Assembly (NCBI GenBank): GCA_038450185.1
Contig: GCA_038450185.1_4765.1
Origin: a phage
Length of the DNA: 64,000 nt
Direction: 5' to 3' (one strand)
Positions within the stretch are counted from its first letter, which is position 1. Every line of letters begins with the position of its first letter. Below are positions 6,006 through 58,270 of this stretch, piece by piece. Position numbers and translations under genes: made by a program. The notes beneath the pieces are model-generated. The model was not told where the DNA came from and searched no databases. It saw nothing but the letters and a program-made list of their open reading frames with translations.

Positions 6006-6034
6006 ATATTACTACTCCCTTTAATCATTGTCAA
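6006..6034 (-). promoter_or_regulatory. early promoter cassette (TTGACA-17-TAATAT) with palindrome across -10
   Basis: GGGAGTATATTACTACTCCC palindrome overlaps the -10 box. Confidence 0.45.
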
Positions 6035-6239: not shown

Positions 6240-6268
6240 ATTATAGGGGATCACCGATCCCCTGTCAA
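6240..6268 (-). promoter_or_regulatory. early promoter cassette (TTGACA-17-TATAAT), palindromic spacer
   Basis: About 45 bp identical to the cassette at 111-155. Confidence 0.6.
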
Positions 6269-12821: not shown

Positions 12822-13141
12822 TTAGTCGCCTCCTTTAATTCTTCGGTAAACTCCTTAAATGAATCATTAAGCTGTTTCTCTACCAACTTGGGTTTTTGTG
12901 CTACTACATAGCCTCGTGTAGCGTCTTTCATTGCTTTGTTTTGTTCTTCTGCAAACTTAGTTCTTATTCCGTACATCTCCTTTTGTAGTGAGTCTACGAC
13001 CTTCATCTTTTCATCTGTCTTTTTCTTATATTCTGTAAATTCCTGATTCAGTCGATCTACCTCTTTTTTATTTTCCCACCACATATTGCCACCCACCCCC
13101 AGCAATACAGATATGATAACAATGTATATCAGCTTTGACAT
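12818..13141 (-). CDS. i-spanin-like protein (N-terminal TM, periplasmic coiled coil)
   Basis: ORF track 12818..13192 trimmed to ATG 13141 (MSKLIYIVIISVLLGVGG...); charged helical C-terminus; position matches T4 pseT.3. Confidence 0.4.
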   Translation of the reverse strand: MSKLIYIVIISVLLGVGGNMWWENKKEVDRLNQEFTEYKKKTDEKMKVVDSLQKEMYGIRTKFAEEQNKAMKDATRGYVVAQKPKLVEKQLNDSFKEFTEELKEATK

Positions 13142-14355: not shown

Positions 14356-14752
14356 AATTTGTGTTCCATTCTGGTTTAAATTTGGTGATCAAAACAGGTT
14401 CTTCGATATCGGCAGTGCTTATAATATCCTTACCCGTTGGATTCTCGATGTACAACTCAAAGCACTGTCGGTAATAGAATGTTACTGTCTTACCTTCCTC
14501 TAGCGCCTTATGAATATTCTTACTCTTGCGAGTATCCGCTGTTGGTGTTTGTCTGTTAATGCTAGTCCGGTAATAATTGATCCTCTTTCTGAGATTGACA
14601 GTCTGACCAATGTATACCAGTTCATCATCAACCGCAATAGCGTAAAGAACATTTAAACGGTTCTTCTGAGGCGGCAGAATCACATCACCATCTTTACACT
14701 CTAAACATGAATATTTAACGAATCCATAGTTTTCTATTAGCTCATTAATCAT
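14291..14752 (-). CDS. denA: endonuclease II (GIY-YIG)
   Basis: ORF track; YAIAVDDELVYIGQTVNLRKRINYYR matches T4 EndoII GIY-YIG core. Confidence 0.75.
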   Translation of the reverse strand: MINELIENYGFVKYSCLECKDGDVILPPQKNRLNVLYAIAVDDELVYIGQTVNLRKRINYYRTSINRQTPTADTRKSKNIHKALEEGKTVTFYYRQCFELYIENPTGKDIISTADIEEPVLITKFKPEWNTNYVNKRKQQKSFSIVQKSDGTM

Positions 14753-14770
14753 TATCCTTTCCTCACGTCA

Positions 14771-14795
14771 CAACAAAGGCGGGATTTCTCCCGCC
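14771..14795 (-). terminator. hairpin after gene 14803..15201
   Basis: GGCGGGA-tttc-TCCCGCC with UUUGUUG on minus strand. Confidence 0.4.
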
Positions 14796-14802
14796 CACCT
14801 TA

Positions 14803-15201
14803 TTAACTTTCCAGAATATCGCGAGCTTCGTTACGCTCCTTGATGATTTTCAGGACAAATTCCAGTTTTTCTTTGTTTAGTGTTCCGTTTTCCATTGCTT
14901 CTTTGACGGTAAACACTCCTCCACCTTGCCCGTATACAGTGACAGTGATTTCACCTAACATCGTGGTGTGAAAACCGCCAATTTTCGGTGATTCGAAAGA
15001 AACAATTACCTCGCGGACAGTATTGCCGTCGTTGATTTCTGAGAGGGTAATGTCGTTTTTGTAGGCGGTTGCTTTAACCATACGGATCAGCATAGTCTGA
15101 TCTGGGGAGATGGTCATTTTGTCCATTGCATGTTGCAATGCAGCGTAACCGAAAACTTTAACGAAGTCCAGAACGTCTTTGCGAGTTTGAAAATTAATCA
15201 T
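14803..15201 (-). CDS. hypothetical protein
   Basis: ORF track; ATG 15201 with AAGGAG SD; promoter cassette upstream. Confidence 0.45.
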   Translation of the reverse strand: MINFQTRKDVLDFVKVFGYAALQHAMDKMTISPDQTMLIRMVKATAYKNDITLSEINDGNTVREVIVSFESPKIGGFHTTMLGEITVTVYGQGGGVFTVKEAMENGTLNKEKLEFVLKIIKERNEARDILES

Positions 15202-15234: not shown

Positions 15235-15263
15235 ATCTTACTACTCCCGTGATATGCTGTCAA
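15235..15263 (-). promoter_or_regulatory. early promoter cassette (TTGACA-17-TAAGAT) with palindrome across -10
   Basis: GGGAGTATCTTACTACTCCC palindrome. Confidence 0.45.
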
Positions 15264-31800: not shown

Positions 31801-32546
31801 GTGGAGTCGTTGAGCATTACGCCTTTGCTATGAAACACAATGGCGACGCGACAGCATATAGAGACTTTATTGCAGGTCGTAACCTGTATGCGAAACAAGG
31901 CGGTTTATACATTGTTGACCAGTCTAATCCGGCAATGACTCGTTCCCCAGATGGTATGCTGAATATCGGTCACGGTGGAAGTGTTAACATCAAGGCAGGT
32001 CATCAAACGTTAACTACAGAGATCGCCGGACAGAAATATCAGATCGTACACGCAGGAAACGCTGACGAAGTTCTTAACCGTCAGTTTGTTAAGAATGCTG
32101 GCGATACAATGGTCGGTAAGCTGACTATGGATAATGCGCCTATTGTTTCTGTTAAGCATGAAGCTAGCGCGGCAACCGCTCCGGCAATCGGTAACATCGG
32201 TTTCTGGAATATGCGAGTTACTACCCAGAACATCAAAGAAACTTATCCAGAGAAGAAAAACGGTACTCTGATGCAATGGGGTACTGACGCGGACGGGCTT
32301 ACCCAGCTTTGGTCCCCCGATGGTACTCATAAACATTATATCCGTTCCGGTACTGGTGGTCAATGGACCGCATGGGGTGAAATTTACACCAAACAGAATA
32401 AGCCTACCGCTCAGGAAATCGGGGCAGTAGTTGCAGAAGGTGGTTTAATGAACTCTATGACGGTTCGTGATTGGATCAAAGTTGGTAATGTTAAAATCAT
32501 CGCCAATAATCTGACTCGTACCGTAGACTTTATCTGGGAAGACTAA
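28806..32546 (+). CDS. 34: long tail fibre proximal subunit
   Basis: ORF track; 1246 aa; repeated ATETRRGIARIATQ-type motifs and C-terminus as in recalled T4 gp34. Confidence 0.9.
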   Translation: MADFSQHFKATFGFDAGNEKVVNVALADKNVNTDAVNVEFFNYHNGITQYDTTRGYDQYGTTIYQNRPYYAKEDITKPAGDFDPTKWQALRTDPRWDYVAATSGDTPLKSGDYIAADCQFANLTFSMPTNPAEGDTITVKDIGGKCGVNELSFLAAGHEFYHNGVVNNRKWYCTTPYAMNYFIFARNRWHVYQTGTEPRGVYAQPSIDPIQMQNGDQVFRRSSLGNIVLMLPKFANNGDIIQTTDLDGLTATNHVTVKVHEGAQEQSIGTFGVKEIVGKRSGHGVFIFDKPENLWRLWDGDQSVRLNPIISDTRLSPNSYVAVFGDRDVTLTLPTNVEPGDRIQVSMQYMHGNQTCRIITSEEDTKILMQKNMVQFPKRSEYPFNGADTWTGVSELSFNAANDYVPYLEFSYSEGDDGKKYWLVAHAHPIVERVDPTRKDRVGVIALATQDETNKNHEDNPSDEVAVTPKVLANKTANETRRGIARIATQAETHQDTGSSFLDDVIVTPKKLNDCVATEARRGVMEIATQHETNEGLDDTRAITPKKLEERRASEDLAGIAEIVQVGGNAAALRGEAGTGIYNINDHAKIVTPQNINEVKATETSRGVGYLATDEEVQGATESTPQDALLITTRTLTKRTATESRTGIAEIATQEETNLGQSDDHIITPKKLHTRRATETLHGLAEIATQEEFDAGLDDARISTPLKIKTFFENAQRLKVDPTQGLNLTGDLWQGIMISGLDATEDTKGVAKVATTQLTDAGQDDTTIITPKKLQGKKATEGKEGIIRVGTQAETVAGTLANVAISPKNFKYVVQTEDTWKATEARRGFLKVATQENCFVGDNLQGSTQELGNYQHDGIAVTPKGLNYALANFLPKMATAQNSLKLGNVEAAKWARRDIDQTIESNYTFNKNVNVKGDLECLKSGSFETLSVTKNSTDVPSNGHLVLGERGVDGHTGITLHGTTASEGMKNSWSIIVGGTGTAQVVDSDAIAFGKINDGGVVEHYAFAMKHNGDATAYRDFIAGRNLYAKQGGLYIVDQSNPAMTRSPDGMLNIGHGGSVNIKAGHQTLTTEIAGQKYQIVHAGNADEVLNRQFVKNAGDTMVGKLTMDNAPIVSVKHEASAATAPAIGNIGFWNMRVTTQNIKETYPEKKNGTLMQWGTDADGLTQLWSPDGTHKHYIRSGTGGQWTAWGEIYTKQNKPTAQEIGAVVAEGGLMNSMTVRDWIKVGNVKIIANNLTRTVDFIWED

Positions 32547-35481: not shown

Positions 35482-38397
35482 ATGGCAGATTTAAGCAGAA
35501 TCCAATTTAAACGTACTAGCACTAAAGGCCGTCGACCTGATGCTGGTACGATGAATCCGGGGGAATTGGCAATCAACCTTGCGGATCAATATCTTCTTAC
35601 TAAAAATGATTCCGGTGCTATTATCAATTTAAGTTGTCCTCCGGTTTATGACAGCGATGTTACAATGGCGGGTAAGGTTAAAGGAAATAATTATATTTTA
35701 AGTAAAACCGCTAATTATTTTGAAGACCAAACCGCGCGAGATCTTAATTATTTTGGTGCGTTTCGACCGAATAATGCTGATGGTTGGTCTAACTTGATTC
35801 TGAACATTCCTCATCCCAGCGGTAAAGCACACGGTCGCGGGTTTGAATTTGAATATGGTTCTAGTTCCTCTCAGGTTAAAACCTATGGCTTTGATAAGGA
35901 TGGTAACAAGAGATTCAGCTTTCGCATGTATCACGAAGGTGATAAACCTACTCCCTCAGAATTGAACGTCTATAGCAAACAAGAAATTGACCGTATGTTT
36001 GTTAAGAACGTTAAAATGGTTGTTCCTTCTGGTGGTGCAACCCGTGGTTATTTTAAAATTGCATCCGCAATGATCCCGCAGAGTGGTCGGATGGCGTTTC
36101 TGCGAATCTATGGTGGTAATGGATATAATGTAAACTCATATGATCAAGTTGATTTTCTTGAAATTGTTATTCGTAGTGGTAATAATAACCCTAAAGGCGT
36201 TAGTATTGCTGCATATCGTCGAAATTCTTTGAACGTCCATGAAGTATTTGCAATTAATACTTCCGGTGATAACTATGACATTTATGTTAACTATGGTCGC
36301 TTCACCGATAACGTTATTGTAGAGTTTGGAAAAACTGTTGATGTTGCATTGACTGTTCACGATGTTCCTGAATTTTCGGCGACTAAACCAGAAACCGGAA
36401 CTAAATTTGATGCTCGTGTTATTACTATGTTCAACACCGAAAACAAAGCCGGAACGTTGATGTTTGATAATAACTCACAAACAACCTATGATATTGTTAG
36501 CCTTAATAACGTACCAGACAACAATAAAAAATATATGCGTAAATTCCGCAGTCGTGCGGCGGAAACAATATGGCATGAAACTGTTCAAGGTGATGTTTAT
36601 CGCCTAGCGACAGGGGCTACCGATCAGAAAGAAGTGTTAAAGATTGTAGGTAGTGATGGTTTATTTGTCAATAGACTTCATCTGCAAGGCAATAACGCGA
36701 TTCGTATGTGGCGTCCTACTGGTTGTAGTAACTATTTTGAATATATGGATCAGCGAGACGGGGCTAATAAACGTCAAGGCTGGTTTGGTTTTGGTTCTAC
36801 AGAAACCAACGATTTTCAATGGTATAGTGACGAAGGTAAAAACTTTGTTAAGCTAGAAGCAAGTGGTCAAGTATCTTTAAGCGCAGGTGCAACCAAAATT
36901 GTATACACTAATGGTCAATATGTAGCTGCCAATTCTGATGCATACCGTATGATCTTTGGTAATTATGGTGCATTCTGGCGTAATGACGGCACTAAAGTTT
37001 ATCTTATGTCTACTGCCGAAAATGATAGATTTGGTGGCTGGAATGCCTATCGTCCATTCATTTATGATTTAACTTCCGGTAACGTTCAATTAGGCGGTGA
37101 TGGTAACGAAGATGCATTAACGTTAGAAAGTGCTTCTCGTGCCGCTCGCTTTAGTAATGACGTTTACATTAAGAAAGGGCTTTTGACTTTCGACGCTGGG
37201 CGATTAAATTCCCGCGATTACTTCCGGTTTAACCATTGGGGCGATAGCAATAACGGTCGCGATAACATTTTACAGCTTGACGATAGCATAGGTCCACACT
37301 TCACCACTGAACGTACTTTAGCAACTGGTTCAATTAAAACTAAATTCTTCGGTAATTTGGAATCTGCTGGTCAAATTAAATGGGGTAAAGGGACCGCCAC
37401 ATCTACGTTTACTCTACGTGTATGGGGTAGCGATAGCCGTAAACAAATATTTGAATGCGGCGATGAAAGCGGGTGGCATTGGTATACCCAACGCGCGGGC
37501 GGTCCTGATACTTCTGCAATTGATTTTGCCATCAATGGTACTGTTAGGCCTCAAGCAATTCACACTGGCGGTAATATCACTATCAACGGTGCTGATATTG
37601 AGTTTAAACGCACTGGCAATAAGCACATCTGGTTTAGAGATCCAAACGGCTTAGAGTTAGGTCTGTTGTACTGCGATGATGCTGGCGTTATGCGTATGCG
37701 CGGTAAGAAACAAACCGAAGTCTGGAAATTCGGCGGTAAGATGATTCAACTTGAAACTGGTACTGTAACCGGTGGCGGTAGTGGTCTGATTCGTGGTAGC
37801 GTTGCTGGTGGTAGTTGGACTAGCTGGCGCGATCGTGCTTCCGGTTTACAGGTCGACTGTCAACAATCAACCGTTTCCGCTCATAACGTATGGAAAGCAA
37901 CCCATCAAGGTAAATATCATATAGCAGCAATGGGTGTACACGTTCCTAGTGGTACTATCGGAAATGCTATGGTGCGTATGCACGTACACGATGCAACTTT
38001 TGACTTTGGTGCGAGCGGTGACTTCCAGGCAAGCCGTAATGGTAATTTTAACGATGTTTATATTCGTTCTGATGCTCGCCTTAAAATCAATAAGGAAGAG
38101 TATAAGGAGAATGCCACCGATAAAGTTAATCGCTTGACGGTATACACCTATGACAAGGTTAAATCTTTAACCGACCGTACTGTCATTGCTCATGAAGTTG
38201 GTATTATTGCTCAGGATCTTGAAAAAGAATTGCCGGAAGCCGTAACAACTTCTAAGATCGGCGATCCAGATAATCCAGAAGAGATCTTAACAATTTCTAA
38301 CTCCGCTGTCAACGCTCTTTTAATTAAGGCGTTTCAGGAAATGAGCGAAGAACTTAAAGCCGTTAAAGCTGAACTAGCGGAACTTAAAAAGAATTAA
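35482..38397 (+). CDS. 37: long tail fibre distal subunit with C-terminal intramolecular chaperone domain
   Basis: ORF track; 971 aa; C-terminal SDARLK ... IAHEVGIIAQDLEKELPEAV ... ISNSAVNALLIKAFQE resembles the self-cleaving S74 chaperone domain. Confidence 0.8.
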   Translation: MADLSRIQFKRTSTKGRRPDAGTMNPGELAINLADQYLLTKNDSGAIINLSCPPVYDSDVTMAGKVKGNNYILSKTANYFEDQTARDLNYFGAFRPNNADGWSNLILNIPHPSGKAHGRGFEFEYGSSSSQVKTYGFDKDGNKRFSFRMYHEGDKPTPSELNVYSKQEIDRMFVKNVKMVVPSGGATRGYFKIASAMIPQSGRMAFLRIYGGNGYNVNSYDQVDFLEIVIRSGNNNPKGVSIAAYRRNSLNVHEVFAINTSGDNYDIYVNYGRFTDNVIVEFGKTVDVALTVHDVPEFSATKPETGTKFDARVITMFNTENKAGTLMFDNNSQTTYDIVSLNNVPDNNKKYMRKFRSRAAETIWHETVQGDVYRLATGATDQKEVLKIVGSDGLFVNRLHLQGNNAIRMWRPTGCSNYFEYMDQRDGANKRQGWFGFGSTETNDFQWYSDEGKNFVKLEASGQVSLSAGATKIVYTNGQYVAANSDAYRMIFGNYGAFWRNDGTKVYLMSTAENDRFGGWNAYRPFIYDLTSGNVQLGGDGNEDALTLESASRAARFSNDVYIKKGLLTFDAGRLNSRDYFRFNHWGDSNNGRDNILQLDDSIGPHFTTERTLATGSIKTKFFGNLESAGQIKWGKGTATSTFTLRVWGSDSRKQIFECGDESGWHWYTQRAGGPDTSAIDFAINGTVRPQAIHTGGNITINGADIEFKRTGNKHIWFRDPNGLELGLLYCDDAGVMRMRGKKQTEVWKFGGKMIQLETGTVTGGGSGLIRGSVAGGSWTSWRDRASGLQVDCQQSTVSAHNVWKATHQGKYHIAAMGVHVPSGTIGNAMVRMHVHDATFDFGASGDFQASRNGNFNDVYIRSDARLKINKEEYKENATDKVNRLTVYTYDKVKSLTDRTVIAHEVGIIAQDLEKELPEAVTTSKIGDPDNPEEILTISNSAVNALLIKAFQEMSEELKAVKAELAELKKN

Positions 38398-38712: not shown

Positions 38713-39369
38713 ATGCAAGTTTCTGAAAAAGGGAAAGACTTTGCTATCTCAAATGTCCTGCGCGCTATTTTCACAACTAAAAGCACGGAGTTGCTCGTAC
38801 TTCGTGTTTTTGCTGCCGTCGTGTTGTCCGTATTGGCATTTGTCGTTTATAGTAAAAACGAGTTATTTGCGCTTTATAAAGAGACTCGTTATGAGACTTA
38901 TGCTCACATTCTCCAGGTAGAGAAAGACCGCAATTTTGATAATGCAGCACAGGAGCAGTTACAGATAGTTCATGTGTCGGCTGATGCCGATTTTTCTGCT
39001 GTTTTTAGCTTTCGTCCGAAAAACCTAAACTATTTTGTTGATTTGGTGGCATATGAAGGAAAGCTACCGCATACGATCGATGAAAAGAATTTAGGCGGAT
39101 TCCCTATCAATAAAACGAGTGAAGAATATCGTAGGCATCTTTTAGGTAAATCATATTTTACCGATAAAGATTTCCAGTATATTCCATCGAGGGAGAAAAA
39201 ATTAGAGAATATCGATATAGGGTTTATGTATTCTTGTCCTATATTCAATCTCGATAATGTCTATTCTGGTAGTATCGCCATTGCATGGAAGAATAAACCG
39301 GATATTGACATTGAGAATTTGGATACTCTTTGCAATCAATCTGCCAGAATCCTCGGAAGGATTAGATAA
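38713..39369 (+). CDS. t: holin
   Basis: ORF track; 218 aa; similarity to recalled T4 holin T (LEQLQIVHVS, FSAVFSFRPKNLNYFVDL, YEGKLP, CNQSARILGRIR). Confidence 0.85.
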   Translation: MQVSEKGKDFAISNVLRAIFTTKSTELLVLRVFAAVVLSVLAFVVYSKNELFALYKETRYETYAHILQVEKDRNFDNAAQEQLQIVHVSADADFSAVFSFRPKNLNYFVDLVAYEGKLPHTIDEKNLGGFPINKTSEEYRRHLLGKSYFTDKDFQYIPSREKKLENIDIGFMYSCPIFNLDNVYSGSIAIAWKNKPDIDIENLDTLCNQSARILGRIR

Positions 39370-39375
39370 CTTAAA

Positions 39376-39409
39376 GGGGAAGCCTTTCGGCCTCCCCTTC
39401 TTTTTTATT
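39376..39409 (+). terminator. intrinsic terminator after holin gene, possibly bidirectional
   Basis: GGGGAAGCC-tttc-GGCCTCCCC hairpin followed by TTCTTTTTTATT. Confidence 0.6.
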
Positions 39410-39653
39410 GGCGCATAGAAGCCCCTGAATCACATTTTGACGCTGTATGATGAAAACAGGTAGCGTACCAGTCATCGGCTTGTTTGTCTTCGTCAGAAAA
39501 CGCGTAATTTCGTTGTATGCCGTTTTCTACTTTGACCAGCGCAATAGCTGTTTCTGGAAGATCAATCAATCGGACAAAATCGCCATCTTCCCATTCTACA
39601 CGAGCAATATCATAACCCATCTCAAAGTATACAATCGCTTGTCCTAATTTCAT
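39405..39653 (-). CDS. hypothetical protein
   Basis: ORF track; ATG 39653. Confidence 0.4.
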   Translation of the reverse strand: MKLGQAIVYFEMGYDIARVEWEDGDFVRLIDLPETAIALVKVENGIQRNYAFSDEDKQADDWYATCFHHTASKCDSGASMRQ

Positions 39654-39961
39654 TCTGGAAACTTCCCGTAAATGTTCTCTGCCAACATACGCGCATCGCT
39701 AATGATATCTTTCATGCTATGACCGTAGTGTTCAGCCATTGAGTTGACACAATCAACAAAGAAATTATAACGGCGACGGTTTAAGATTTCTTCTCTGCTA
39801 TAGTTTTCATATTTGACGGTCGAGTGTGCTTTCTCGATTGCCTTGATCGCTATATTGACTTCATTGATAATGGTTTTAGCATTGTATGCGCCACGACGGA
39901 TCAGGATATTTGTCAATTCTCTTGCAATATCTTGCAATTCTTCATATTCATGTTCAAACAT
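39650..39961 (-). CDS. hypothetical protein
   Basis: ORF track 39650..39982 (TTG); ATG 39961 with GAGAGGT SD. Confidence 0.4.
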   Translation of the reverse strand: MFEHEYEELQDIARELTNILIRRGAYNAKTIINEVNIAIKAIEKAHSTVKYENYSREEILNRRRYNFFVDCVNSMAEHYGHSMKDIISDARMLAENIYGKFPE

Positions 39962-39985
39962 AATCAACCTCTCAAAATACAATCC

Positions 39986-40318
39986 TTACAGATGAAAACC
40001 TGTTACGATCACCGCATCGATCTTACCGCTAGGAATAAACGGTTCGCCCTCTTTTATTTCAACTTTGAATTGATGCCATTTCGCTAATACTTCTTCCGGT
40101 ACACCCAGCGATTCGGCGTCTGCTTTAGTTTCATCCATAATCCAACTAGGCTGCATGAGAGCATAGTTTACATAGTCCATTTCTGGGGTCATGTCATCAA
40201 TGTTAATATATTTGCAGTTGACGCGTTTCAGAATTTCAAATTCTTTATTATCAACCTGTACCATGTATAATTCAGTAGTTTCTGGAATCAGTTCCCACAC
40301 AATCAGTACATTTTTCAT
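39986..40318 (-). CDS. hypothetical protein
   Basis: ORF track; ATG 40318 with GAGGTG SD. Confidence 0.45.
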   Translation of the reverse strand: MKNVLIVWELIPETTELYMVQVDNKEFEILKRVNCKYINIDDMTPEMDYVNYALMQPSWIMDETKADAESLGVPEEVLAKWHQFKVEIKEGEPFIPSGKIDAVIVTGFHL

Positions 40319-40326
40319 AGTTCACC

Positions 40327-40695
40327 TCACTTAACAAAGATTTTCTTTAATGCTTTCAGGATCGTTGCTTCCGGCGCTTCTTCCGGTGGAGGAAGCAATT
40401 CTACCACTTCCTCTTCCAACTCGATATAGTCTACCAGATATTCTACATAGAATGCAAGTGCTTCCATGAAATTAGATGCTACATCCGATTCACCACAAGC
40501 GCCTACATGCATTGTATAAACATCACTGCGATCAAGTTTGTGGATGCTTCCCAGATAGTTTCGGTTATACCAGACTTCCCACACTTTCAGCTTTCCGGTT
40601 TTGGTTGCTGTTTTATAATCGGTTTCGTAATGATGCAATTGACGTTGCAAATCATTGATAATAACACATTTTTCGTAATTGTTTTGAATTTCCAT
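40327..40695 (-). CDS. hypothetical protein
   Basis: ORF track; ATG 40695 with GAGGA SD. Confidence 0.45.
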   Translation of the reverse strand: MEIQNNYEKCVIINDLQRQLHHYETDYKTATKTGKLKVWEVWYNRNYLGSIHKLDRSDVYTMHVGACGESDVASNFMEALAFYVEYLVDYIELEEEVVELLPPPEEAPEATILKALKKIFVK

Positions 40696-40705
40696 GATGT
40701 AATCC

Positions 40706-40897
40706 TCACTTATCGTTAAGAAGTTCTAAAACTTTCTGTCGTACTTTGTCAATATTAGTTGATTCAAAAACTGTACGGTATCCCCAGCTTTGACCGTATG
40801 AGCGGTTGCAATCTCCATATCCCCATTGTTCAACCTGATAGTATTCAAGGAATGGGTGCTGCCGAACTATGATACCATCGCGATTAAAAATTACCAT
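40706..40897 (-). CDS. hypothetical protein
   Basis: ORF track; ATG 40897 with GTGAGGA SD. Confidence 0.45.
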   Translation of the reverse strand: MVIFNRDGIIVRQHPFLEYYQVEQWGYGDCNRSYGQSWGYRTVFESTNIDKVRQKVLELLNDK

Positions 40898-40920
40898 AAT
40901 ATAATCCTCACGTCAACAAC

Positions 40921-41208
40921 TTATTTTCGGTTGTGGTCACGATATGTTTTAAAATATCCCTCGTACCACGGTAAAACATCTGGATTTTTACCACTATACA
41001 GACCTTTAACCATCATGTCAATAAGACCGTCCGGTGTTTGATAATTACCAGCTTTTATAAGCTCTCTGATTAAAATTTCCCTGTATATGTCTTTCGGATC
41101 TTCGTAATCAACTTGTATCGTGGTTGTTGTCTCGCTTAATTTGGTTTCTGGAGTATCTTGCATCGCCTTCCACCAATCTTTTGTGATCTTCATGTTATTG
41201 AATTGCAT
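40921..41208 (-). CDS. hypothetical protein
   Basis: ORF track; ATG 41208. Confidence 0.4.
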   Translation of the reverse strand: MQFNNMKITKDWWKAMQDTPETKLSETTTTIQVDYEDPKDIYREILIRELIKAGNYQTPDGLIDMMVKGLYSGKNPDVLPWYEGYFKTYRDHNRK

Positions 41209-41219
41209 AATTTAACCTA

Positions 41220-41978
41220 TTACTTGCAAACGTATTGATCTACATCAATTGCGCCACCGAATGTAGGATGACGTTTTTCGAATCGAATAGTTCCGTCGTT
41301 TGGTTCGAAAACGGAGTATTCATATAGATCTTTCTTGCCAACATTCTTATAAAACCCGCCTTTAGTCATAACGGTTTCTTGTACGTTTGCTTTGTGTACG
41401 TTGTATTCATCAATGTATACAAAATCAACCATCTTCCCATTTTTAATTGTTACTTTAAGATCTCCTGGTTGGTTTCCATATTTGGCATACAGTGGCGCTT
41501 CTTTAATTTTTGTGGAAATTCCATCTTTCATACTCCACTCATAACGAACGGTGCATTGATAGGTAAAAGTTTCGACCTTCGGTTCTTCTACCACTTTTTC
41601 TTCCTGTTTCGGTTGTTCTTCTTCAACCTTCACAGAAGTCTCTGAATCGCTTTCTGACGCGGTTTCTTCTTTAGGTAATACATTCATCAAGTTTTGGATT
41701 TGAGCGTTGTATACAGCCTCCAGTGGCTGAATCTGCCCGATATTGATCATTGTATCACGAACAGTTTTATTCCAGTTGCGTTGCTCTTGTTTCAGAGACG
41801 GATCAATCTTAACAGCTTTAACATATACTTCATGAAGTTTCGAATCCAGTGCGGAGATTGACTCATTAACACAAATAAACTTCTCTGATTTGGTAGTAGC
41901 CTTAGTGCAATCAAAGGACGCAGCATTAGCACCTAAAGCAGTAGCAGAAAGAACGATAGCAGCGATAATGTTTTTCAT
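41220..41978 (-). CDS. secreted protein with DUF1311 / LprI-like N-terminal domain
   Basis: ORF track; signal peptide MKNIIAAIVLSATALGANA; SFDCTKATTKSEKFICVNESISALDSKLHEVY pattern; promoter cassette upstream. Confidence 0.45.
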   Translation of the reverse strand: MKNIIAAIVLSATALGANAASFDCTKATTKSEKFICVNESISALDSKLHEVYVKAVKIDPSLKQEQRNWNKTVRDTMINIGQIQPLEAVYNAQIQNLMNVLPKEETASESDSETSVKVEEEQPKQEEKVVEEPKVETFTYQCTVRYEWSMKDGISTKIKEAPLYAKYGNQPGDLKVTIKNGKMVDFVYIDEYNVHKANVQETVMTKGGFYKNVGKKDLYEYSVFEPNDGTIRFEKRHPTFGGAIDVDQYVCK

Positions 41979-42012
41979 AATATATTCCTCAATGTTTTGT
42001 CTTGATGGGAGT

Positions 42013-42041
42013 ATCTTACTACTCCCTTAATCCGGTGTCAA
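42013..42041 (-). promoter_or_regulatory. early promoter cassette (TTGACA-17-TAAGAT) with palindrome across -10
   Basis: GGGAGTATCTTACTACTCCC palindrome. Confidence 0.45.
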
Positions 42042-42048
42042 CTACTTT

Positions 42049-42204
42049 TTAAATTTCTTCTACAGTAAAGTCTTCAATGTTGTTGTGCTCGGCGAACGTT
42101 GCCAGACCAGCATTCCATGCATCATCCTCAGAGAAGAATACACCGTAACGTTCATATCCTTTAGCGCCTTCAAATTTAACCATTAATTTGTGAGTATGTT
42201 TCAT
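42049..42204 (-). CDS. hypothetical small protein
   Basis: ORF track 42049..42264 trimmed to ATG 42204 (MKHTHKLMV) after GGAGAATCAAA RBS. Confidence 0.4.
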   Translation of the reverse strand: MKHTHKLMVKFEGAKGYERYGVFFSEDDAWNAGLATFAEHNNIEDFTVEEI

Positions 42205-42235
42205 TTTGATTCTCCTTCGTTGTCTTGATGAGTTC

Positions 42236-42264
42236 ATTATAGGGGATCGCAGATCCCCTGTCAA
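42236..42264 (-). promoter_or_regulatory. early promoter cassette (TTGACA-17-TATAAT), palindromic spacer
   Basis: Spacer GGGGATCTGCGATCCCC. Confidence 0.55.
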
Positions 42265-42276
42265 CTATTTTTTAAA

Positions 42277-42537
42277 TTATTTTCGCCATTCACCGGAAAC
42301 AATGAAGTTTGTAAAGTGATTGTGGTCCGTGATAATGTCATTAAGTACCATATGCGGATATGCTTTAGTGTAATCACGTTTACGATCAGTCATCCAACCA
42401 ACGAAAGTCGGTGCAAAGTACGGCACACCGTCAGATGATGCCATATTAAACCCTTTATCAGCCATAAATGCAGCCGCCCTAAGATTTTTAATTGAAGTAG
42501 TGCGACTAATTTCAAAAACTTTATCGGTAAAATTCAT
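42277..42537 (-). CDS. hypothetical protein
   Basis: ORF track 42277..42558; ATG 42537 with GGGGG SD adjacent to upstream stop. Confidence 0.35.
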   Translation of the reverse strand: MNFTDKVFEISRTTSIKNLRAAAFMADKGFNMASSDGVPYFAPTFVGWMTDRKRDYTKAYPHMVLNDIITDHNHFTNFIVSGEWRK

Positions 42538-42538
42538 T

Positions 42539-42748
42539 TTAAACCCCCACTCGTGCATTAATACGCATTTTCTGCATAGCCATGATCTGGCTTACTGCTT
42601 CTTCTTTACGTTCTTGCGTGATAACGTGACCAGATTCCGCAAACTCTCCCGTAACTTCTTCTATGATCTCGCGAACTTGAGAACGTCCAAAGATGCGGTT
42701 TCCTTCGTAGCTCATAAATTCAGTCACTACTTGCTCAATAGATTTCAT
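42539..42748 (-). CDS. hypothetical protein
   Basis: ORF track; ATG 42748; promoter cassette upstream. Confidence 0.45.
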   Translation of the reverse strand: MKSIEQVVTEFMSYEGNRIFGRSQVREIIEEVTGEFAESGHVITQERKEEAVSQIMAMQKMRINARVGV

Positions 42749-42777
42749 GTGATTCTCCTTTCGTTTGGTATGGGAGT

Positions 42778-42806
42778 ATCTTACTACTCCCTTATCTTTA
42801 CGTCAA
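42778..42806 (-). promoter_or_regulatory. early promoter cassette (TTGACG-17-TAAGAT) with palindrome across -10
   Basis: GGGAGTATCTTACTACTCCC palindrome. Confidence 0.4.
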
Positions 42807-42813
42807 CCAGTTT

Positions 42814-43056
42814 TTAGAAATTTTTCGCTTCTTCTTCGGTCATCATCACCGCGCATTCGTGCATAACTTTGAAAACCGGGTCAATCATATCGAATGCTTC
42901 GCGGGACAGTTTACGAGAAGCGATTTTGATTGCTTCAACGTCTTCTACTACAGGAACAAAAACAGTTTTCAGTTCGTCGAGCACGGCAGCTTCTTTTTCA
43001 TTCAGGAAGATTCCAGCGTCGTACAATGCAACTTCGATAACATTAACTTTAACCAT
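42814..43056 (-). CDS. hypothetical acidic protein
   Basis: ORF track 42814..43119 trimmed to ATG 43056 (MVKVNVIEV). Confidence 0.4.
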   Translation of the reverse strand: MVKVNVIEVALYDAGIFLNEKEAAVLDELKTVFVPVVEDVEAIKIASRKLSREAFDMIDPVFKVMHECAVMMTEEEAKNF

Positions 43057-43090
43057 TTTTATTTCCTCCAGTTCGTTTCGGTATGGGAGT

Positions 43091-43119
43091 ATAATACTAC
43101 CGATGACCTTTGGCGTCAA
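43091..43119 (-). promoter_or_regulatory. early promoter cassette (TTGACG-17-TATTAT)
   Basis: Hexamers upstream of gene starting 43056. Confidence 0.4.
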
Positions 43120-43320
43120 CTAGTTTTTGTTATTTTCGTGAAAATTTTTCGTCGCCTCATGTGCTTTTCGCTGGGCTTCTTGTTGTGCTTGCTGGCGTGC
43201 TGCCTCTTGCGATGCCATAACAGACGCATTTGCAGCAGTTACAGCCGCGACCATCGCTGCGGTATTAGCATTTACCGTACATGCACTAGCCAGCAAAGCA
43301 ATTGCAATCATTTTCTTCAT
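43120..43320 (-). CDS. small secreted or lipoprotein-like protein
   Basis: ORF track; signal peptide MKKMIAIALLASACTVNA, Ala/Gln-rich mature part; ATG 43320 with AAAGGGGA SD. Confidence 0.45.
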   Translation of the reverse strand: MKKMIAIALLASACTVNANTAAMVAAVTAANASVMASQEAARQQAQQEAQRKAHEATKNFHENNKN

Positions 43321-43487
43321 AGTTTCCCCTTTAGGTTATCTTCGACCTTCACCCATTCCGCGTATTCTTGCGCGGCTACTTTCGGATTTAAGCCGTCTTC
43401 GTACATTGCTTCAAGTAATTCTTCGTCGGTTGGCTTATACCCTAGATAAGCCTCCACCTGATTTTTCCAAATTTTATACCAGTTCAT
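43317..43487 (-). CDS. hypothetical small protein
   Basis: ORF track 43317..43556; first ATG not overlapping the upstream gene is 43487. Confidence 0.3.
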   Translation of the reverse strand: MNWYKIWKNQVEAYLGYKPTDEELLEAMYEDGLNPKVAAQEYAEWVKVEDNLKGKL

Positions 43488-43491
43488 ATTA

Positions 43492-43764
43492 TCACCAGTC
43501 AAGAGCGCGTGTCTCTGCGTCTTCCCATGCTTGATCCATAACAGCCTTGAAAACATATTCTAGAGTATCATCTTTAGAGAATCCGAAGACTTTAGACGGA
43601 ATATCTTCGATTGCTACTCCCGCAACTTCTGCATTACGCGCTTGGCAATAATGCAACTCTAAGTTATCGAGATAGCGACCGCCTAATTTCTCCATATCAT
43701 CCCAGCATTTCCAGTAACCTACTTTATCTGCAATTGCCAACACTTTGCTGTTTTCGTTGTTCAT
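43492..43764 (-). CDS. hypothetical protein
   Basis: ORF track 43492..43827 trimmed to ATG 43764 (MNNENSKV) after GGAGAATCAAA RBS. Confidence 0.4.
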   Translation of the reverse strand: MNNENSKVLAIADKVGYWKCWDDMEKLGGRYLDNLELHYCQARNAEVAGVAIEDIPSKVFGFSKDDTLEYVFKAVMDQAWEDAETRALDW

Positions 43765-43795
43765 CTTTGATTCTCCTTTTGTTTGGTATGTGTGT

Positions 43796-43824
43796 ATTAT
43801 GCAATGATGGATTATGGAAGTCAA
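43796..43824 (-). promoter_or_regulatory. early promoter cassette (TTGACT-17-CATAAT)
   Basis: Hexamers upstream of gene starting 43764. Confidence 0.45.
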
Positions 43825-43835
43825 CAACTTTTAAA

Positions 43836-43863
43836 ATAAAAAAGCCGACCACAAGGATCGGCT
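43836..43863 (-). terminator. intrinsic terminator
   Basis: AGCCGA...TCGGCT hairpin preceded by A-run. Confidence 0.5.
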
Positions 43864-43873
43864 TAATAATCAG

Positions 43874-44269
43874 TTACTTACTAAATTTCTTTTTGGCTTC
43901 GTCTACTGCATGAGATGCTAGTACCGCTGCCGCATGTGCACTTTTATCTGTGTTGCAGAGAACACCCAGATAAACATCACGCCAAAGTTTAATCATCTCA
44001 TAGATCATATCAATATCATTTTCTTGTTTGTTGGCGATGCTATTCGTCGTTATCTGGTAAGGTAACGGCTTGATCTGTACTGGTTCCGCCATCGGGCTAA
44101 TCGGTTTCGGATCAGTCATAATAGGTGCTGTTGTGGGTGGTGTTTTCCATACATCATTATTCCACGGTTTAATCGTTGTGTCGTAAAGTTTATAAGGATT
44201 TTTGTCTGGGTCAACCATCCATGCATGATGAGTACCCAAACCATTTGAAGTGATGCGTCGTTCAGTCAT
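43874..44269 (-). CDS. hypothetical protein
   Basis: ORF track; ATG 44269 with GGAGGG SD. Confidence 0.45.
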   Translation of the reverse strand: MTERRITSNGLGTHHAWMVDPDKNPYKLYDTTIKPWNNDVWKTPPTTAPIMTDPKPISPMAEPVQIKPLPYQITTNSIANKQENDIDMIYEMIKLWRDVYLGVLCNTDKSAHAAAVLASHAVDEAKKKFSK

Positions 44270-44465
44270 ACTTTCCCTCCAAAAATTCTTTCATCAAATA
44301 GTCTATCGTTACTCTGTGTTCTGGTGTGTTTGTTATCTCTGCTAACTTATTCAGAGATTCAATAGTGATCCGGTTGGCTTCTTCCATAGTCTCAACGACC
44401 ATCGGTACAATCTTTTTATTGTTGTACACGAAAGCCACATAACCGCCTTCTGGATATTCTTTCAT
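44262..44465 (-). CDS. hypothetical protein
   Basis: ORF track 44262..44471 (TTG); ATG 44465. Confidence 0.4.
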   Translation of the reverse strand: MKEYPEGGYVAFVYNNKKIVPMVVETMEEANRITIESLNKLAEITNTPEHRVTIDYLMKEFLEGKYD

Positions 44466-44467
44466 AA

Positions 44468-45832
44468 TCAACCCTTCTTAAGTTCTTTAAGATCTTTCTT
44501 ATATTCCTTCATTGCGGTCGTCTTTGTCCAATACTCATATTCACTATGATGTTTATCGGCATCTTTGACCAGTCGATCATACTCTTCTTGAGTAACGCTA
44601 TACAATGGCATAGAAACTAGCTTATCGGCGTATGGACGCAGTTTTTCATGTCCATTGATGGATTGCATTACCTCGGCCTTTTTCTTTCCCTGTAGCTCGA
44701 TTTCGCCCTTAATTACAAGGTCGATAAATTCAGCTTTAGCCATTGCATAATTGTATGCTTCCAGTGTTTCCGCTTGCATCAATTCAATGCGTTTATCTAC
44801 ATAGCCTAATCGGATTTCGACGAATCGACGGATCAGATCGCTCGCTTTTTCGAATACTTCTACTAAACCACGTTCGTTAACTACTACGATATTCTGGGCT
44901 ACTAACTGCGTTAGTTTAAAATCCTTCATGATTTGCTCATGTCGAGCGGATTCATCTTCGCTTTTGAAATAATCACGTTTCAGTGTTACTTCAAATCTGA
45001 ATCCGTCCTTAGAGCAACGGTCATTATACGATACAATCAGATCTTTTTCTTCCAGTGCATCCAGTACCGCTACATATTCTTCACGGTCGAACTTATAAGG
45101 AACTTCTGATATTGTCAGTTTAGTCTTGCCGTTTAGTTCATATGTACCCTCAAGAATCACACCATCGCGATCATCTCGCGGGATAACTTTACCCGTGAAT
45201 TTCGGGAATTGAACACTAGGTTCTTTATCCAGTTTTCCGGCAAGTGCTAGCTCTGTGCATTCAATAAGGCTTTCCAGTGAATGCGGTAAAATGTCAGTTT
45301 TATACCCTGTAGCAATACCACTAATACCGTTAGCCAATACCATTGGAACAACTGGCAAGTAGAACGCTGGCGGGATGTGTTCCAGATCTTCGTGCTTAGG
45401 TGCGCAATTCATATCTTTATAGATTTTAAAGAAGTTTTCATGAACACGAGCAAAGATATAACGTGCCGCACCTGCTTTCTGGACTAAACGCGATCCGAAG
45501 TTACCTTGACCGTCAAGCAGTGGAGTATTATTGCTCCATGTATTCGCCATGAGTGATCCGGCTTCTACGGCATTAGTTTCCCCGTGGTGATAACCCAACT
45601 CAGCAACACCAGATCCAATATCTGCCATCTTACGGAATTTCTTACGGTCGCCTTTACTCTTTTGAAGTGCGCACTCCATAACAAAGCGTTGCACTGGTTT
45701 AAGCCCATCCACTAATTGAGGAATCCCGCGTTCCTCGGCAGAATAGATCGCATATTCCTTAGCTTCATTATGTACAATGCTTTCAAGGCTGCGGTAAGTA
45801 AATGTGTTTACAATTTGACTAATTTTATCCAT
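44468..45832 (-). CDS. 52: DNA topoisomerase II medium subunit
   Basis: ORF track 44468..45847; ATG 45832 with GAGGTG SD; similarity to recalled T4 gp52 (GLKPVQRF, LGYHHGE, PLLDGQGNFGSR, ARYIFAR). Confidence 0.85.
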   Translation of the reverse strand: MDKISQIVNTFTYRSLESIVHNEAKEYAIYSAEERGIPQLVDGLKPVQRFVMECALQKSKGDRKKFRKMADIGSGVAELGYHHGETNAVEAGSLMANTWSNNTPLLDGQGNFGSRLVQKAGAARYIFARVHENFFKIYKDMNCAPKHEDLEHIPPAFYLPVVPMVLANGISGIATGYKTDILPHSLESLIECTELALAGKLDKEPSVQFPKFTGKVIPRDDRDGVILEGTYELNGKTKLTISEVPYKFDREEYVAVLDALEEKDLIVSYNDRCSKDGFRFEVTLKRDYFKSEDESARHEQIMKDFKLTQLVAQNIVVVNERGLVEVFEKASDLIRRFVEIRLGYVDKRIELMQAETLEAYNYAMAKAEFIDLVIKGEIELQGKKKAEVMQSINGHEKLRPYADKLVSMPLYSVTQEEYDRLVKDADKHHSEYEYWTKTTAMKEYKKDLKELKKG

Positions 45833-45839
45833 CTTCACC

Positions 45840-46202
45840 TCATACACGCTTACAAATCACATTCTTTACTTTATCAGATTTATCAGCCCAATCCAATAGC
45901 CATTTTAACGGAAGGATTGAAACAATAAACGGGGCAGCAATCAAAGCAAACATGATACCCCTGATAATCAGGAAAGCGCAAGTGACAAAACTGGCGATAG
46001 TGATCCCGACAAAACAAAATACCATAGAAAACAGAGTAATGATATAGAAAGGCCAGAATACCCACTCCCGCATCTTAACTCCTTTGTATTCTCTGAATTG
46101 CTTAAAATCTACAAACAACTCTCGGATAGACGCGTACAGGACCGAAAAATCATCTTTCATTGCTCTGAATGAGCAATCTTCTATTTTAGAATGACCTAGC
46201 AT
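45840..46202 (-). CDS. integral membrane protein
   Basis: ORF track; two or three hydrophobic helices. Confidence 0.45.
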   Translation of the reverse strand: MLGHSKIEDCSFRAMKDDFSVLYASIRELFVDFKQFREYKGVKMREWVFWPFYIITLFSMVFCFVGITIASFVTCAFLIIRGIMFALIAAPFIVSILPLKWLLDWADKSDKVKNVICKRV

Positions 46203-57737: not shown

Positions 57738-58256
57738 TTAGTAGCCGCGTTCTTGACGGGCGAAGTTTTCAGCATTTTTCAGATAGTACAGAATAAAGAG
57801 TTCTTGAGCGTCAATACCCAGCGGGATCATCTTTGACAGAATGAAGTGGATCGCGTCCACAAATTCAAATTTCACTTCAAGCTGATCTTCCGGTGACAGT
57901 TCAGAGAATTTACGCGCTCGCGCTTCCCCGTGGTTCTTTTTCCACATTTTCCAGATTGCACTTGCATCTTTACCATTGGACATTCCACCCAGAGATGTGT
58001 AAAGCTCTCGTGTTTCGTCTGCGATAGCGTCATCCATCCGTTGCATCCAATCCAGCATTTCACCGCAAGTCTCTAGCTTAGTTGGATTTGGGACCCAATC
58101 AAATTTTTCGGATAATGCAACCTGCAAACCAGTTTGCATTTCGAGCATCACCTGAAACGGATCTTTACCTTCTGCAATCGCGTGATGATATGCGGCGATA
58201 GCCGCGTTAATATCTTTTTCGTTAACCAGACCAGCACAAGAATTAAATTCTGACAT
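57738..58256 (-). CDS. 56: dCTP pyrophosphatase (MazG-like)
   Basis: ORF track 57738..58262 (GTG); ATG 58256; similarity to recalled T4 gp56 (KDPFQVMLEMQ, ASAIWKMWKK, LSPEDQLEVKFE, YYLKNAENFARQERGY). Confidence 0.75.
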   Translation of the reverse strand: MSEFNSCAGLVNEKDINAAIAAYHHAIAEGKDPFQVMLEMQTGLQVALSEKFDWVPNPTKLETCGEMLDWMQRMDDAIADETRELYTSLGGMSNGKDASAIWKMWKKNHGEARARKFSELSPEDQLEVKFEFVDAIHFILSKMIPLGIDAQELFILYYLKNAENFARQERGY

Positions 58257-58270
58257 ATTCACCTCATTAA

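Follow-up and report, generated by a model that had tools for sequence, protein, structure and literature searches.

We analysed a block of small open reading frames (ORFs) that occupies the interval between the holin gene t and the topoisomerase gene 52 in a phage DNA stretch of 64,000 nucleotides (nt), contig GCA_038450185.1_4765.1 of GenBank assembly GCA_038450185.1; this whole stretch is called the window here. An earlier reading made from the sequence alone had described the block as 16 small minus-strand ORFs of 51–252 amino acids (aa), placed where phage T4 carries asiA and motA. The ORF list bears this description out: 16 minus-strand ORFs, with little or no overlap, tile positions 39405–44471. 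With ATG starts, which we chose and with which the starts of the PHROG profiles agree, the block spans 39405–44465, and the proteins, numbered o1 to o16 from the t side, are 82, 103, 110, 122, 63, 95, 252, 51, 86, 69, 80, 66, 56, 90, 131 and 67 aa long. The genes that bound it are as follows.

38713–39369, plus strand: holin gene t, the left boundary; 218 aa, 48% identical to T4 t (E 3.6e-67).
44468–45847, minus strand: gene 52, topoisomerase II medium subunit, the right boundary; 51% identical to T4 gp52 (E 4.6e-146).

The window comes from a Krischvirus, that is, an RB49-like coliphage. A megablast search of positions 39300–44500 against a phage collection gave 64 matching records, Krischvirus wherever taxonomy was checked, most of them at 90–99% nucleotide identity to the block. 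The closest, vB_EcoM_Skers, aligns over the whole block in one piece (5.2 kb) at 97.6% nucleotide identity; its annotation places 16 hypothetical proteins between ‘holin’ and ‘topoisomerase’, the same gene set as here. The remainder of the window follows the RB49 map, beginning with a hyperplastic region with ORFans and 30, 31, cd, pseT, rnlA, denA, nrdB/A, td and frd, continuing with 32, 59, 33, rnh, 34–37, t, the block and 52, and ending with rIIB, rIIA, 39, dexA, dda, srd, modB, 56, 61, 41 and uvsX. T4 has t, asiA, asiA.1, arn, arn.1–4, motA, motA.1 and 52 in the corresponding interval, and t and gp52 are the only proteins of that set that the window matches. Rfam and tRNA scans of the block returned no RNA family and no tRNA. 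The block is the known t–52 hyperplastic region of RB49-like phages, with its known PeSL promoter cassettes.

The ORFs behave as genes. When the block was compared among nine related genomes, variable sites in the minus-strand frames fell at codon positions 1, 2 and 3 in the numbers 79, 54 and 286. A clear Shine–Dalgarno sequence precedes 13 of the 16 starts (upstream sequences read by eye), and 14 of the 16 ORFs match a PHROG family, of unknown function in every case. The frames run head to tail along the strand, with overlaps of starts and stops, the negative GC and AT skew of the block is shared with the neighbouring minus-strand genes, and most of the proteins are acidic (isoelectric point (pI) 4.4–5.8).

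The sequence-only reading had also placed the ORFs behind repeated promoter cassettes. These proved to be real, near-consensus and enriched, but there are only five, upstream of o14, o11, o10, o8 and o7, and not one per ORF; the remaining 11 ORFs directly follow or overlap the gene before them and lack separate promoters. Each of the five intergenic cassettes has the form TTGAC[AGT]-17-TAnnAT or CATAAT, scores 9–12 out of 12 against the sigma-70 consensus, is AT-rich in its 5′ part and is followed by a conserved leader, ‘ACTCCCATACCAAAC…AAGGAGAATCA’. Four of them contain a hairpin: in three it lies between the boxes or over the −10 box (free energies (dG) of −11.9 to −13.2 kcal/mol, z −2.6 to −2.9), and the fourth is a terminator that precedes the o14 promoter. 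The cassettes and the terminator at the far end of the block are listed here.

43765–43873, minus strand: PeSL of o14, of the upstream stem-loop type; terminator hairpin at 43842–43864 (dG −12.7, z −4.3), then TTGACT-17-CATAAT at 43796–43824.
43057–43119, minus strand: PeSL-type promoter of o11; TTGACG-17-TATTAT at 43091–43119, with a degenerate hairpin that is not significant (z −0.8).
42749–42813, minus strand: PeSL of o10; TTGACG-17-TAAGAT at 42778–42806, with a hairpin at 42772–42791 over the −10 box (dG −12.4, z −2.6).
42205–42276, minus strand: PeSL of o8; perfect TTGACA-17-TATAAT at 42236–42264 (12/12), with the hairpin GGGGATC…GATCCCC between the boxes (dG −13.2, z −2.9).
41979–42048, minus strand: PeSL of o7; TTGACA-17-TAAGAT at 42013–42041, with the hairpin GGGAGTA…TACTCCC at 42007–42026 over the −10 box, then the Shine–Dalgarno sequence (dG −11.9, z −2.8).
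39373–39400, both strands: bidirectional intrinsic terminator common to t (plus) and the o7–o1 operon (minus); its GC-rich hairpin of 12 bp (dG −23.2 kcal/mol, z −5.5) is accompanied by T runs on either strand.

Over the whole window there are 23 matches to the strict pattern TTGAC-N18-TANNAT, always on the minus strand, against 1.18 expected. Enrichment is limited to this near-consensus class; promoter-like sites of all grades were no more frequent in the block than in shuffled sequence (15 versus 21.2), and the late motif TATAAATA is absent from the block. Annotations of relatives agree at two of the sites: phage GEC-3S carries promoter, −10 and −35 features under the segment of the o11 promoter, and phage G2494 a terminator at the site equivalent to 39373–39400.

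PeSL elements were first described in RB49 and phi1 (Arbiol et al. 2010, PMC2839356; Comeau et al. 2014, PMC4122927), where they number about 51 per genome, are concentrated in hyperplastic regions and have been proposed as agents of modular shuffling (PMC2839356; PMC4122927); promoter and terminator activity of other phi1/RB49 PeSLs was demonstrated with lacZ reporters (PMC2839356). Judged by their sequence, the cassettes of the block are PeSL elements that match the published definition and its subclasses: a near-consensus promoter with a 17-nt spacer stands before an ORFan with a Shine–Dalgarno sequence, the stem-loops are built from a G run and a C run, and the cassettes are associated with insertions and deletions.

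This arrangement suggests a simple transcription layout, in which each cassette would supply a near-consensus sigma-70 promoter, usually a G-rich stem-loop, and then a conserved Shine–Dalgarno sequence. The start of o16 lies 2 nt past the stop of gene 52, so the two are probably co-transcribed; o16 and o15 would be read through from gene 52 as far as the hairpin terminator at 43842–43864. The five PeSLs would then restart transcription for o14–o12, o11, o10–o9, o8 and the seven-gene operon o7–o1, which would stop at the strong bidirectional terminator shared with the holin gene. Since promoters of this kind are recognised by host sigma-70 RNA polymerase without phage factors, the island would need neither MotA nor AsiA, and we infer from the promoters that it is expressed early.

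Near-identical copies of the PeSL hairpin-promoter also lie in other variable regions of the window, at 120–148, 6240–6268, 6006–6034 and 15235–15263; the first two of these are near-identical to the o8 PeSL. Such dispersed copies would provide homology for ectopic recombination. Three further strict sigma-70 consensus matches on the minus strand (32335–32363, 36643–36671 and 38284–38312) fall inside the plus-strand late genes 34 and 37, far above chance for that stretch, and may be early antisense promoters.

We next consider gene gain and loss among the nine relatives. All of them carry o1–o7 and o14–o16, whereas o8, o9, o11, o12 and o13 come and go, as does an extra 68-aa ORF between o14 and o15. 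Record counts vary likewise, with o4 in 59 phage records, o8 in 36, o11 plus o12 in 32 and o9 in 14, against 64 that match the block; o9 is present in phi1 and absent from RB49. In window coordinates the breakpoints are 42055|42253, 42056|42546, 42278|42546, 42827|43330 and 43797|43760, most of them at PeSL edges or within about 20 nt. Thus 42055/42056 lies by the o7 PeSL (FL15, MIZ4 and phiS), 42827 at the o10 PeSL (RB49 and G2494), and the 68-aa cassette is inserted at the o14 PeSL, with a duplicated PeSL, in Brandy, FL04, SSG23 and G2494. The set found here, in which o9, o11 and o12 are present and the 68-aa cassette is absent, is identical to that of Skers. We propose that the repeated cassettes serve as portable homology for recombination, and that it would be for this reason that the PeSL-rich middle (o8–o13 and the extra o14/o15 cassette) differs between near-identical phages while the flanks (o1–o7 and o14–o16) are fixed. 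In this comparison of at least nine genomes, gene turnover is concentrated in a 1.9-kb PeSL-rich core.

We then asked whether any of the 16 proteins is related to AsiA or MotA. In Pfam, none matched AsiA (PF09010), MotA_activ or MotCF (PF09114 and PF09158) at E ≤ 1. The same profiles gave 144.6 bits for T4 AsiA, 48.1 bits for the 29%-identical AsiA of the Pseudomonas phage Astolliot, 230.6 and 205.7 bits for T4 MotA and 29.3 bits for MotA of Acinetobacter phage ZZ1. A hidden Markov model (HMM) of AsiA built from six genera was run, filters switched off, on the 3568 ORFs of at least 30 aa in the six frames of the RB49 genome and the window; its best match (E 0.023) lay inside gp43, the DNA polymerase, and the best real ORF reached E 2.7. 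The best match of a MotA HMM had E 1.8, and hhalign comparisons of each ORF family gave probabilities of at most 2.2% against AsiA and at most 0.8% against MotA. A region of Aeromonas phage 31 examined as the source of a third MotA sequence did not contain motA. The middle promoters told the same story: the Mot-box pattern TGCTTnA-N11-13-TAnnnT was found once in the window against 0.8 expected and once in the RB49 genome against 1.9, that is, at chance, and T4 as a control had 5 on the coding strand against 0.8.

Two candidates were considered and rejected. A tblastn match of MotA at 14618–14932 (summed E 0.031) lies in denA and an adjoining ORF and was treated as chance. The second was o2, which is helical, about 100 aa long and near t; this ORFan of six clusters gave an hhalign probability of 1.3%, and Foldseek returned no AsiA (best E 0.54).

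The view that none of the 16 ORFs resembles MotA or AsiA, formed by eye in the sequence-only reading, therefore holds up under Pfam, custom HMMs, hhalign and one fold search (o2); the sensitive search that had been named beforehand as its refuting test found no homologue. Its broader suggestion, a phage without the T4 middle-mode apparatus, is also upheld, as the RB49 genome, searched whole, likewise lacks asiA, motA and Mot-box promoters. By these homology searches the block is without AsiA and MotA, which is correct and ordinary, having been known for RB49 since 2002–2006: RB49 was reported to have no motA and no middle promoters (Nolan 2006, PMC1524935, citing Desplats 2002). Missing from the genus altogether are asiA, motA and Mot-box promoters, which, like its want of hmC genes, is textbook knowledge; the genus would run an early-plus-late programme.

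Taken together, the block is very probably the t–52 hyperplastic island of Krischvirus, or ‘pseudo-T-even’ phages: a set of small, mostly acidic, early accessory genes, driven from PeSLs and without MotA or AsiA. Several points weigh against this reading. The o11 cassette lacks a convincing hairpin, and promoter and terminator activity here rests on sequence and on experiments with other phi1/RB49 PeSLs. The o2 family forms a second variable spot that is not linked to a PeSL: it has one copy here, as it does in Skers, Brandy and MIZ4, and RB49, FL15, FL04, phiS and G2494 have two paralogues (107 and 110 aa) with a 41-aa ORF between them. The o9 indel, too, has one end (42546, at the stop of o10) away from any PeSL; these two observations imply that PeSL recombination is not the sole mechanism. 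Finally, 14 of the 16 proteins have no functional assignment and only two ORFs were modelled, one of them at a predicted local distance difference test (pLDDT) score of 43, so the 16 may include a functional analogue of AsiA that is not homologous to it.

As for functions, we infer host takeover and counter-defence as the likely ones, with o1 as a possible Tad2-like sponge and o7 and o12 as possible periplasmic proteins. Three proteins gave leads in sequence searches.

39405–39653, minus strand: o1, 82 aa, Tad2-like/DUF2829 protein and candidate anti-Thoeris signal sponge; PF11195, phrog_1048, in all nine relatives.
40327–40695, minus strand: o4, 122 aa, probable distant homologue of the Arn.4 family; 97.5–100% aa identity in 59 Krischvirus records.
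41220–41978, minus strand: o7, 252 aa, predicted to be secreted; signal peptide, LprI/DUF1311 domain, acidic linker and a C-terminal domain of unknown type.

The match of o1 to PF11195 (28.9 bits, cut-off 25; E 1.8e-6) covers profile positions 1–71 of 73, and its closest cluster, P0007, is likewise tagged PF11195. The family is very narrow, with five true relatives among 1.84e9 representatives, the other matches being spurious FN3-repeat hits. Neither phmmer nor a five-sequence profile matched o1 to the PDB, and its AlphaFold2 model (pLDDT 43) was unusable. Tad2 sequesters the Thoeris signal 1′′–3′ gcADPR, and DUF2829 proteins of diverse phages inhibit Thoeris (Yirmiya et al., bioRxiv 10.1101/2023.05.01.538930); on the strength of the domain match, o1 is a candidate for such a Tad2-like sponge.

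The N-terminal part of o7 scored 24.1 bits against PF07007 (cut-off 22) over residues 24–76, which include the Cys-containing DUF1311 motif, and is preceded by a hydrophobic segment (maximum Kyte–Doolittle hydropathy 1.82). The first 408 nt of the gene share 95–97% identity with a chromosomal gene that 26 of 5426 complete E. coli genomes carry and that adjoins phage terminase and hicAB genes in strain 266917_2. Over the first ~135 aa the two proteins are near-identical (alignment read by eye) and then become much more diverged, with 66% identity overall. This mosaic suggests that a virulent T4-type phage and a temperate prophage have recently exchanged DNA. NCBI names the relatives of o7 ‘lysozyme inhibitor LprI family protein’; phmmer and profile searches of the PDB gave no match to o7, whose C-terminal domain has no known relative.

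The relation of o4 to T4 is transitive only. It is 36% identical to PG7_281 of a Karamvirus (E 1.8e-9), which lies directly downstream of motA and is itself 34% identical to T4 Arn.4 (E 5.5e-8); an NFM-A-F motif is common to them. Compared directly, o4 and T4 Arn.4 are not significantly similar (E 1.9), and phmmer found no match to o4 in the PDB. Through PG7_281, o4 would be a distant Arn.4 homologue, a minor new detail, and thus a single survivor from the ancestral slot with its T4-type asiA–motA arrangement. An old RB49 GenBank note, according to which RB49p259 resembles a T4 protein of the AsiA–MotA region, is backed by this link.

The other proteins of the block are listed below; NCBIfam and PADLOC gave nothing meaningful for any of the 16, and Pfam was blank for those listed here.

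39650–39961, minus strand: o2, 103 aa, Krischvirus-only ORFan, predicted to form four helices; six clusters in 5.8e9 proteins, AlphaFold2 pLDDT 75.
39986–40318, minus strand: o3, 110 aa, conserved in the genus; phrog_4658, variable sites 4/3/21 by codon position.
40706–40897, minus strand: o5, 63 aa; phrog_6957, in all nine relatives.
40921–41208, minus strand: o6, 95 aa; phrog_15915, in all nine relatives.
42049–42204, minus strand: o8, 51 aa, variable cassette gene; phrog_19699, in 36 phage records, absent in FL15, MIZ4 and phiS.
42277–42537, minus strand: o9, 86 aa, variable and basic (pI 9.1); phrog_19692, in 14 phage records, indel 42278|42546.
42539–42748, minus strand: o10, 69 aa; phrog_14966, in all nine relatives.
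42814–43056, minus strand: o11, 80 aa, variable cassette gene; no PHROG, the o11 plus o12 segment in 32 records.
43120–43320, minus strand: o12, 66 aa, exported- or lipoprotein-like, variable; no PHROG or other family.
43317–43487, minus strand: o13, 56 aa; phrog_8655 aligns to the 56-aa form.
43492–43764, minus strand: o14, 90 aa, conserved; phrog_7287, in all nine relatives.
43874–44269, minus strand: o15, 131 aa, conserved; phrog_15644, variable sites 8/6/30 by codon position.
44262–44465, minus strand: o16, 67 aa; phrog_15105, beginning 2 nt past the gene 52 stop.

The N-terminus of o12 (MKKMIAIALLASAC…) is a hydrophobic leader (maximum Kyte–Doolittle hydropathy 1.51) on a protein of pI 9.5. 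For o2, a phmmer search of the PDB found no match, and the Foldseek search of the PDB was without a significant one, the hits being mostly designed or generic helical proteins.

A functional refinement that is compatible with the hyperplastic-island reading holds that the island is mainly a counter-defence and superinfection-exclusion locus. In detail, o1 would sequester the Thoeris signal gcADPR, o7 and o12, in the periplasm, would counter lysis from without or incoming phage, and the other acidic ORFans would inhibit host defence or housekeeping proteins. It draws on the score of o1 above the Pfam Tad2-like threshold together with the inhibition of Thoeris by diverse DUF2829 proteins (10.1101/2023.05.01.538930), on the anti-McrBC DNA mimic Arn that T4 keeps in the same slot, on the signal peptide and LprI domain of o7, whose closest relative adjoins phage terminase and hicAB in the E. 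coli chromosome, on the absence of T4 sp and imm by tblastn, and on the acidity of most of the proteins. Against this, the Tad2 link is one modest Pfam match without a sequence link to the PDB or a usable model, LprI is a domain name and the lysozyme-inhibitor activity of o7 is putative, and PADLOC, NCBIfam and PHROGs yield no function. We regard the refinement as a tentative possibility.

A wider version, which we consider rather unlikely, is that the t–52 slot is a conserved early counter-defence and takeover island across the Straboviridae, with contents exchanged by cassette recombination. In T4 the slot holds AsiA, MotA and Arn, a mimic directed against McrBC; in Krischvirus it would hold o1 as a divergent Tad2-like gcADPR sponge, the secreted o7, apparently exchanged with E. 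coli prophages in recent times and possibly protecting the periplasm as Spackle does, and some ten acidic ORFans. If so, there may be new inhibitors of E. coli defence systems among the ORFans, or a protein unrelated to AsiA that takes over its shut-off of host promoters.

The sequence-only reading had further noted the absence of alc, denB and a T4-type gp38 from the window and suggested that the DNA might lack hydroxymethylcytosine (hmC). We searched the window and the complete RB49 genome by tblastn with 23 T4 proteins (threshold E < 0.01). No match was found in either for asiA, motA, arn, T4-type gp38, ndd, imm, sp, motB, modA, alc, denB or the two glucosyltransferases a-gt and b-gt; gp56, srd, modB, dam, gp55, denA, pseT.3, rnlA and rIIB were recovered as controls at 32–61% identity. 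The gp42 query matched only td, a 411-aa thymidylate synthase (E 7.6e-5). The slot of alc between pseT.3 and rnlA is closed, the pseT.3 match ending at 13069 and the rnlA match beginning at 13207, and the RB49 annotation agrees with these absences. Thus alc, denB and a T4-type gp38 are indeed missing, and beyond the block neither the window nor RB49 holds motA, asiA, gene 42 or glucosyltransferase genes. A T4-type gp38 chaperone is likely not needed, because gp37 (35482–38397) ends in a Peptidase_S74 intramolecular chaperone domain of ~110 aa (46.9 bits); the RB49 annotation has a T2-like gp38 adhesin elsewhere in the genome (RB49p079).

As for the cytosines themselves, HpaII and NheI both cut RB49 DNA, in which neither hmC nor its glucosylated form was judged to be present (Yaung 2014, PMC4041780), and Krischvirus TB34 has canonical nucleosides only, as determined by HPLC-MS (PMC13390438, 2026). 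For Krischvirus SAP, which is 99.96% identical to TB34 and has no known pathway genes, the same report gives 5-hydroxymethyldeoxycytidine (5-hmdC) and glucosyl- and gentiobiosyl-mdC, without an explanation from its authors; SAP has the same modification profile as Tequatroviruses of that collection, and BrxU cut its DNA least (PMC13390438). Mixed DNA is a possible source of the SAP result, an interpretation that is ours and not the authors’. The suggestion that this phage possibly lacks hmC is therefore supported: gp42, a-gt and b-gt are absent and RB49 and TB34 are unmodified, but gene content alone is no guarantee, given the SAP report. We consider it likely that this phage is without hmC.

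The converse, that this isolate modifies its cytosines through an unknown pathway despite having neither gene 42 nor glucosyltransferases, seems improbable. SAP and its unmodified sister TB34 give it some basis, and the window keeps gp56 (49%) and DenA (50%). It has to be set against plain cytosine in RB49 by restriction digests (PMC4041780) and in TB34 by HPLC-MS (PMC13390438), against the lack of the pathway homologues in the window and RB49, and against a SAP profile that mixed DNA could explain. Because SAP was reported as modified without pathway genes, the absence of gene 42 does not strictly imply the absence of hmC in Krischvirus, and the two should not be equated in the genus while SAP and TB34 disagree. 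Gene 56 (57738–58262) is 49% identical to T4 dCTPase, with a Pfam match to dUTPase_2, and denA (14291–14752) is 50% identical to T4 endonuclease II; as both are kept although RB49-type DNA has plain cytosine, their roles must differ from those in T4.

It is very unlikely that a highly diverged AsiA or MotA, or a split MotA, hides among the 16 ORFs and that the phage has a middle mode after all. AsiA is small and fast-evolving (29% identity between T4 and a Pseudomonas phage), o2 is about 100 aa long, all-helical in its model and one gene from the holin, and KVP40 and Aeh1 have AsiA without MotA (PMC1524935). However, the Pfam profiles that detected the 29%-identical control were blank on the block, the six-genus HMM was negative genome-wide, the hhalign probabilities were at their low values throughout, and no AsiA was among the Foldseek matches of the o2 model. 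The sole ORF above 131 aa, o7, has a predicted signal peptide, Mot boxes are at chance, and earlier published searches were negative too (PMC1524935). That the 16 ORFs are wholly or partly open frames due to chance is scarcely credible, for although chance readily yields ORFs of 51–70 aa and long antisense ORFs occur too (for example 42859–43449, plus strand, 196 aa), the third-position bias in the minus frames, the Shine–Dalgarno sequences, the PHROG matches and the end-to-end tiling all oppose it.

The loss of the middle mode, the loss of hmC DNA and PeSL-driven plasticity in RB49-like phages have all been published already, and the hyperplastic-island reading adds little to knowledge of T4-type transcription; its value is a checked annotation of one island. 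The minor new details, as read from sequence, are the Tad2-like/DUF2829 assignment of o1, the probable distant Arn.4 homology of o4 and the predicted secreted LprI-domain mosaic o7. These three genes, Tad2-like, Arn.4-like and prophage-related, are worth a bench test; a modest residual interest attaches to the Tad2-like gene, the apparently prophage-derived secreted protein and the SAP report (PMC13390438).

Among known systems, Tad2 of SPO1 resembles o1 in being short (89 aa versus 82 aa) and occurs across phage morphotypes (10.1101/2023.05.01.538930), and o1 is likewise essentially one domain above the PF11195 threshold. Unlike Tad2, o1 is very divergent, has no sequence link to solved structures and has about five close relatives. 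Like the periplasmic LprI/DUF1311 proteins, o7 has a signal peptide and an N-terminal motif above threshold, lysozyme inhibition being putative; like T4 Spackle, it would be the periplasmic product of an early gene, but it has no sequence relation to Spackle.

The asiA–motA region of T4 has the same flanks and orientation as the block, small early genes on the strand opposite t, and one family in common with it (o4/Arn.4). The block differs from it in having no AsiA, MotA or Arn, 16 genes versus 9, and host-type promoters only, without Mot boxes. The closest counterparts are the PeSL hyperplastic regions of RB49 and phi1 (PMC2839356, PMC4122927), which belong to the same genus and include the same locus (RB49p255–p268). 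There, as here, near-perfect TTGACA-N17-TATAAT promoters with an AT-rich upstream part are followed by a Shine–Dalgarno sequence and an ORFan, G-run/C-run stem-loops sit upstream of the −35 box, in the spacer or across the −10 box, and the indels of close relatives fall at the cassettes. From these regions the block does not differ in kind; it has only its own set of cassettes, as in Skers.

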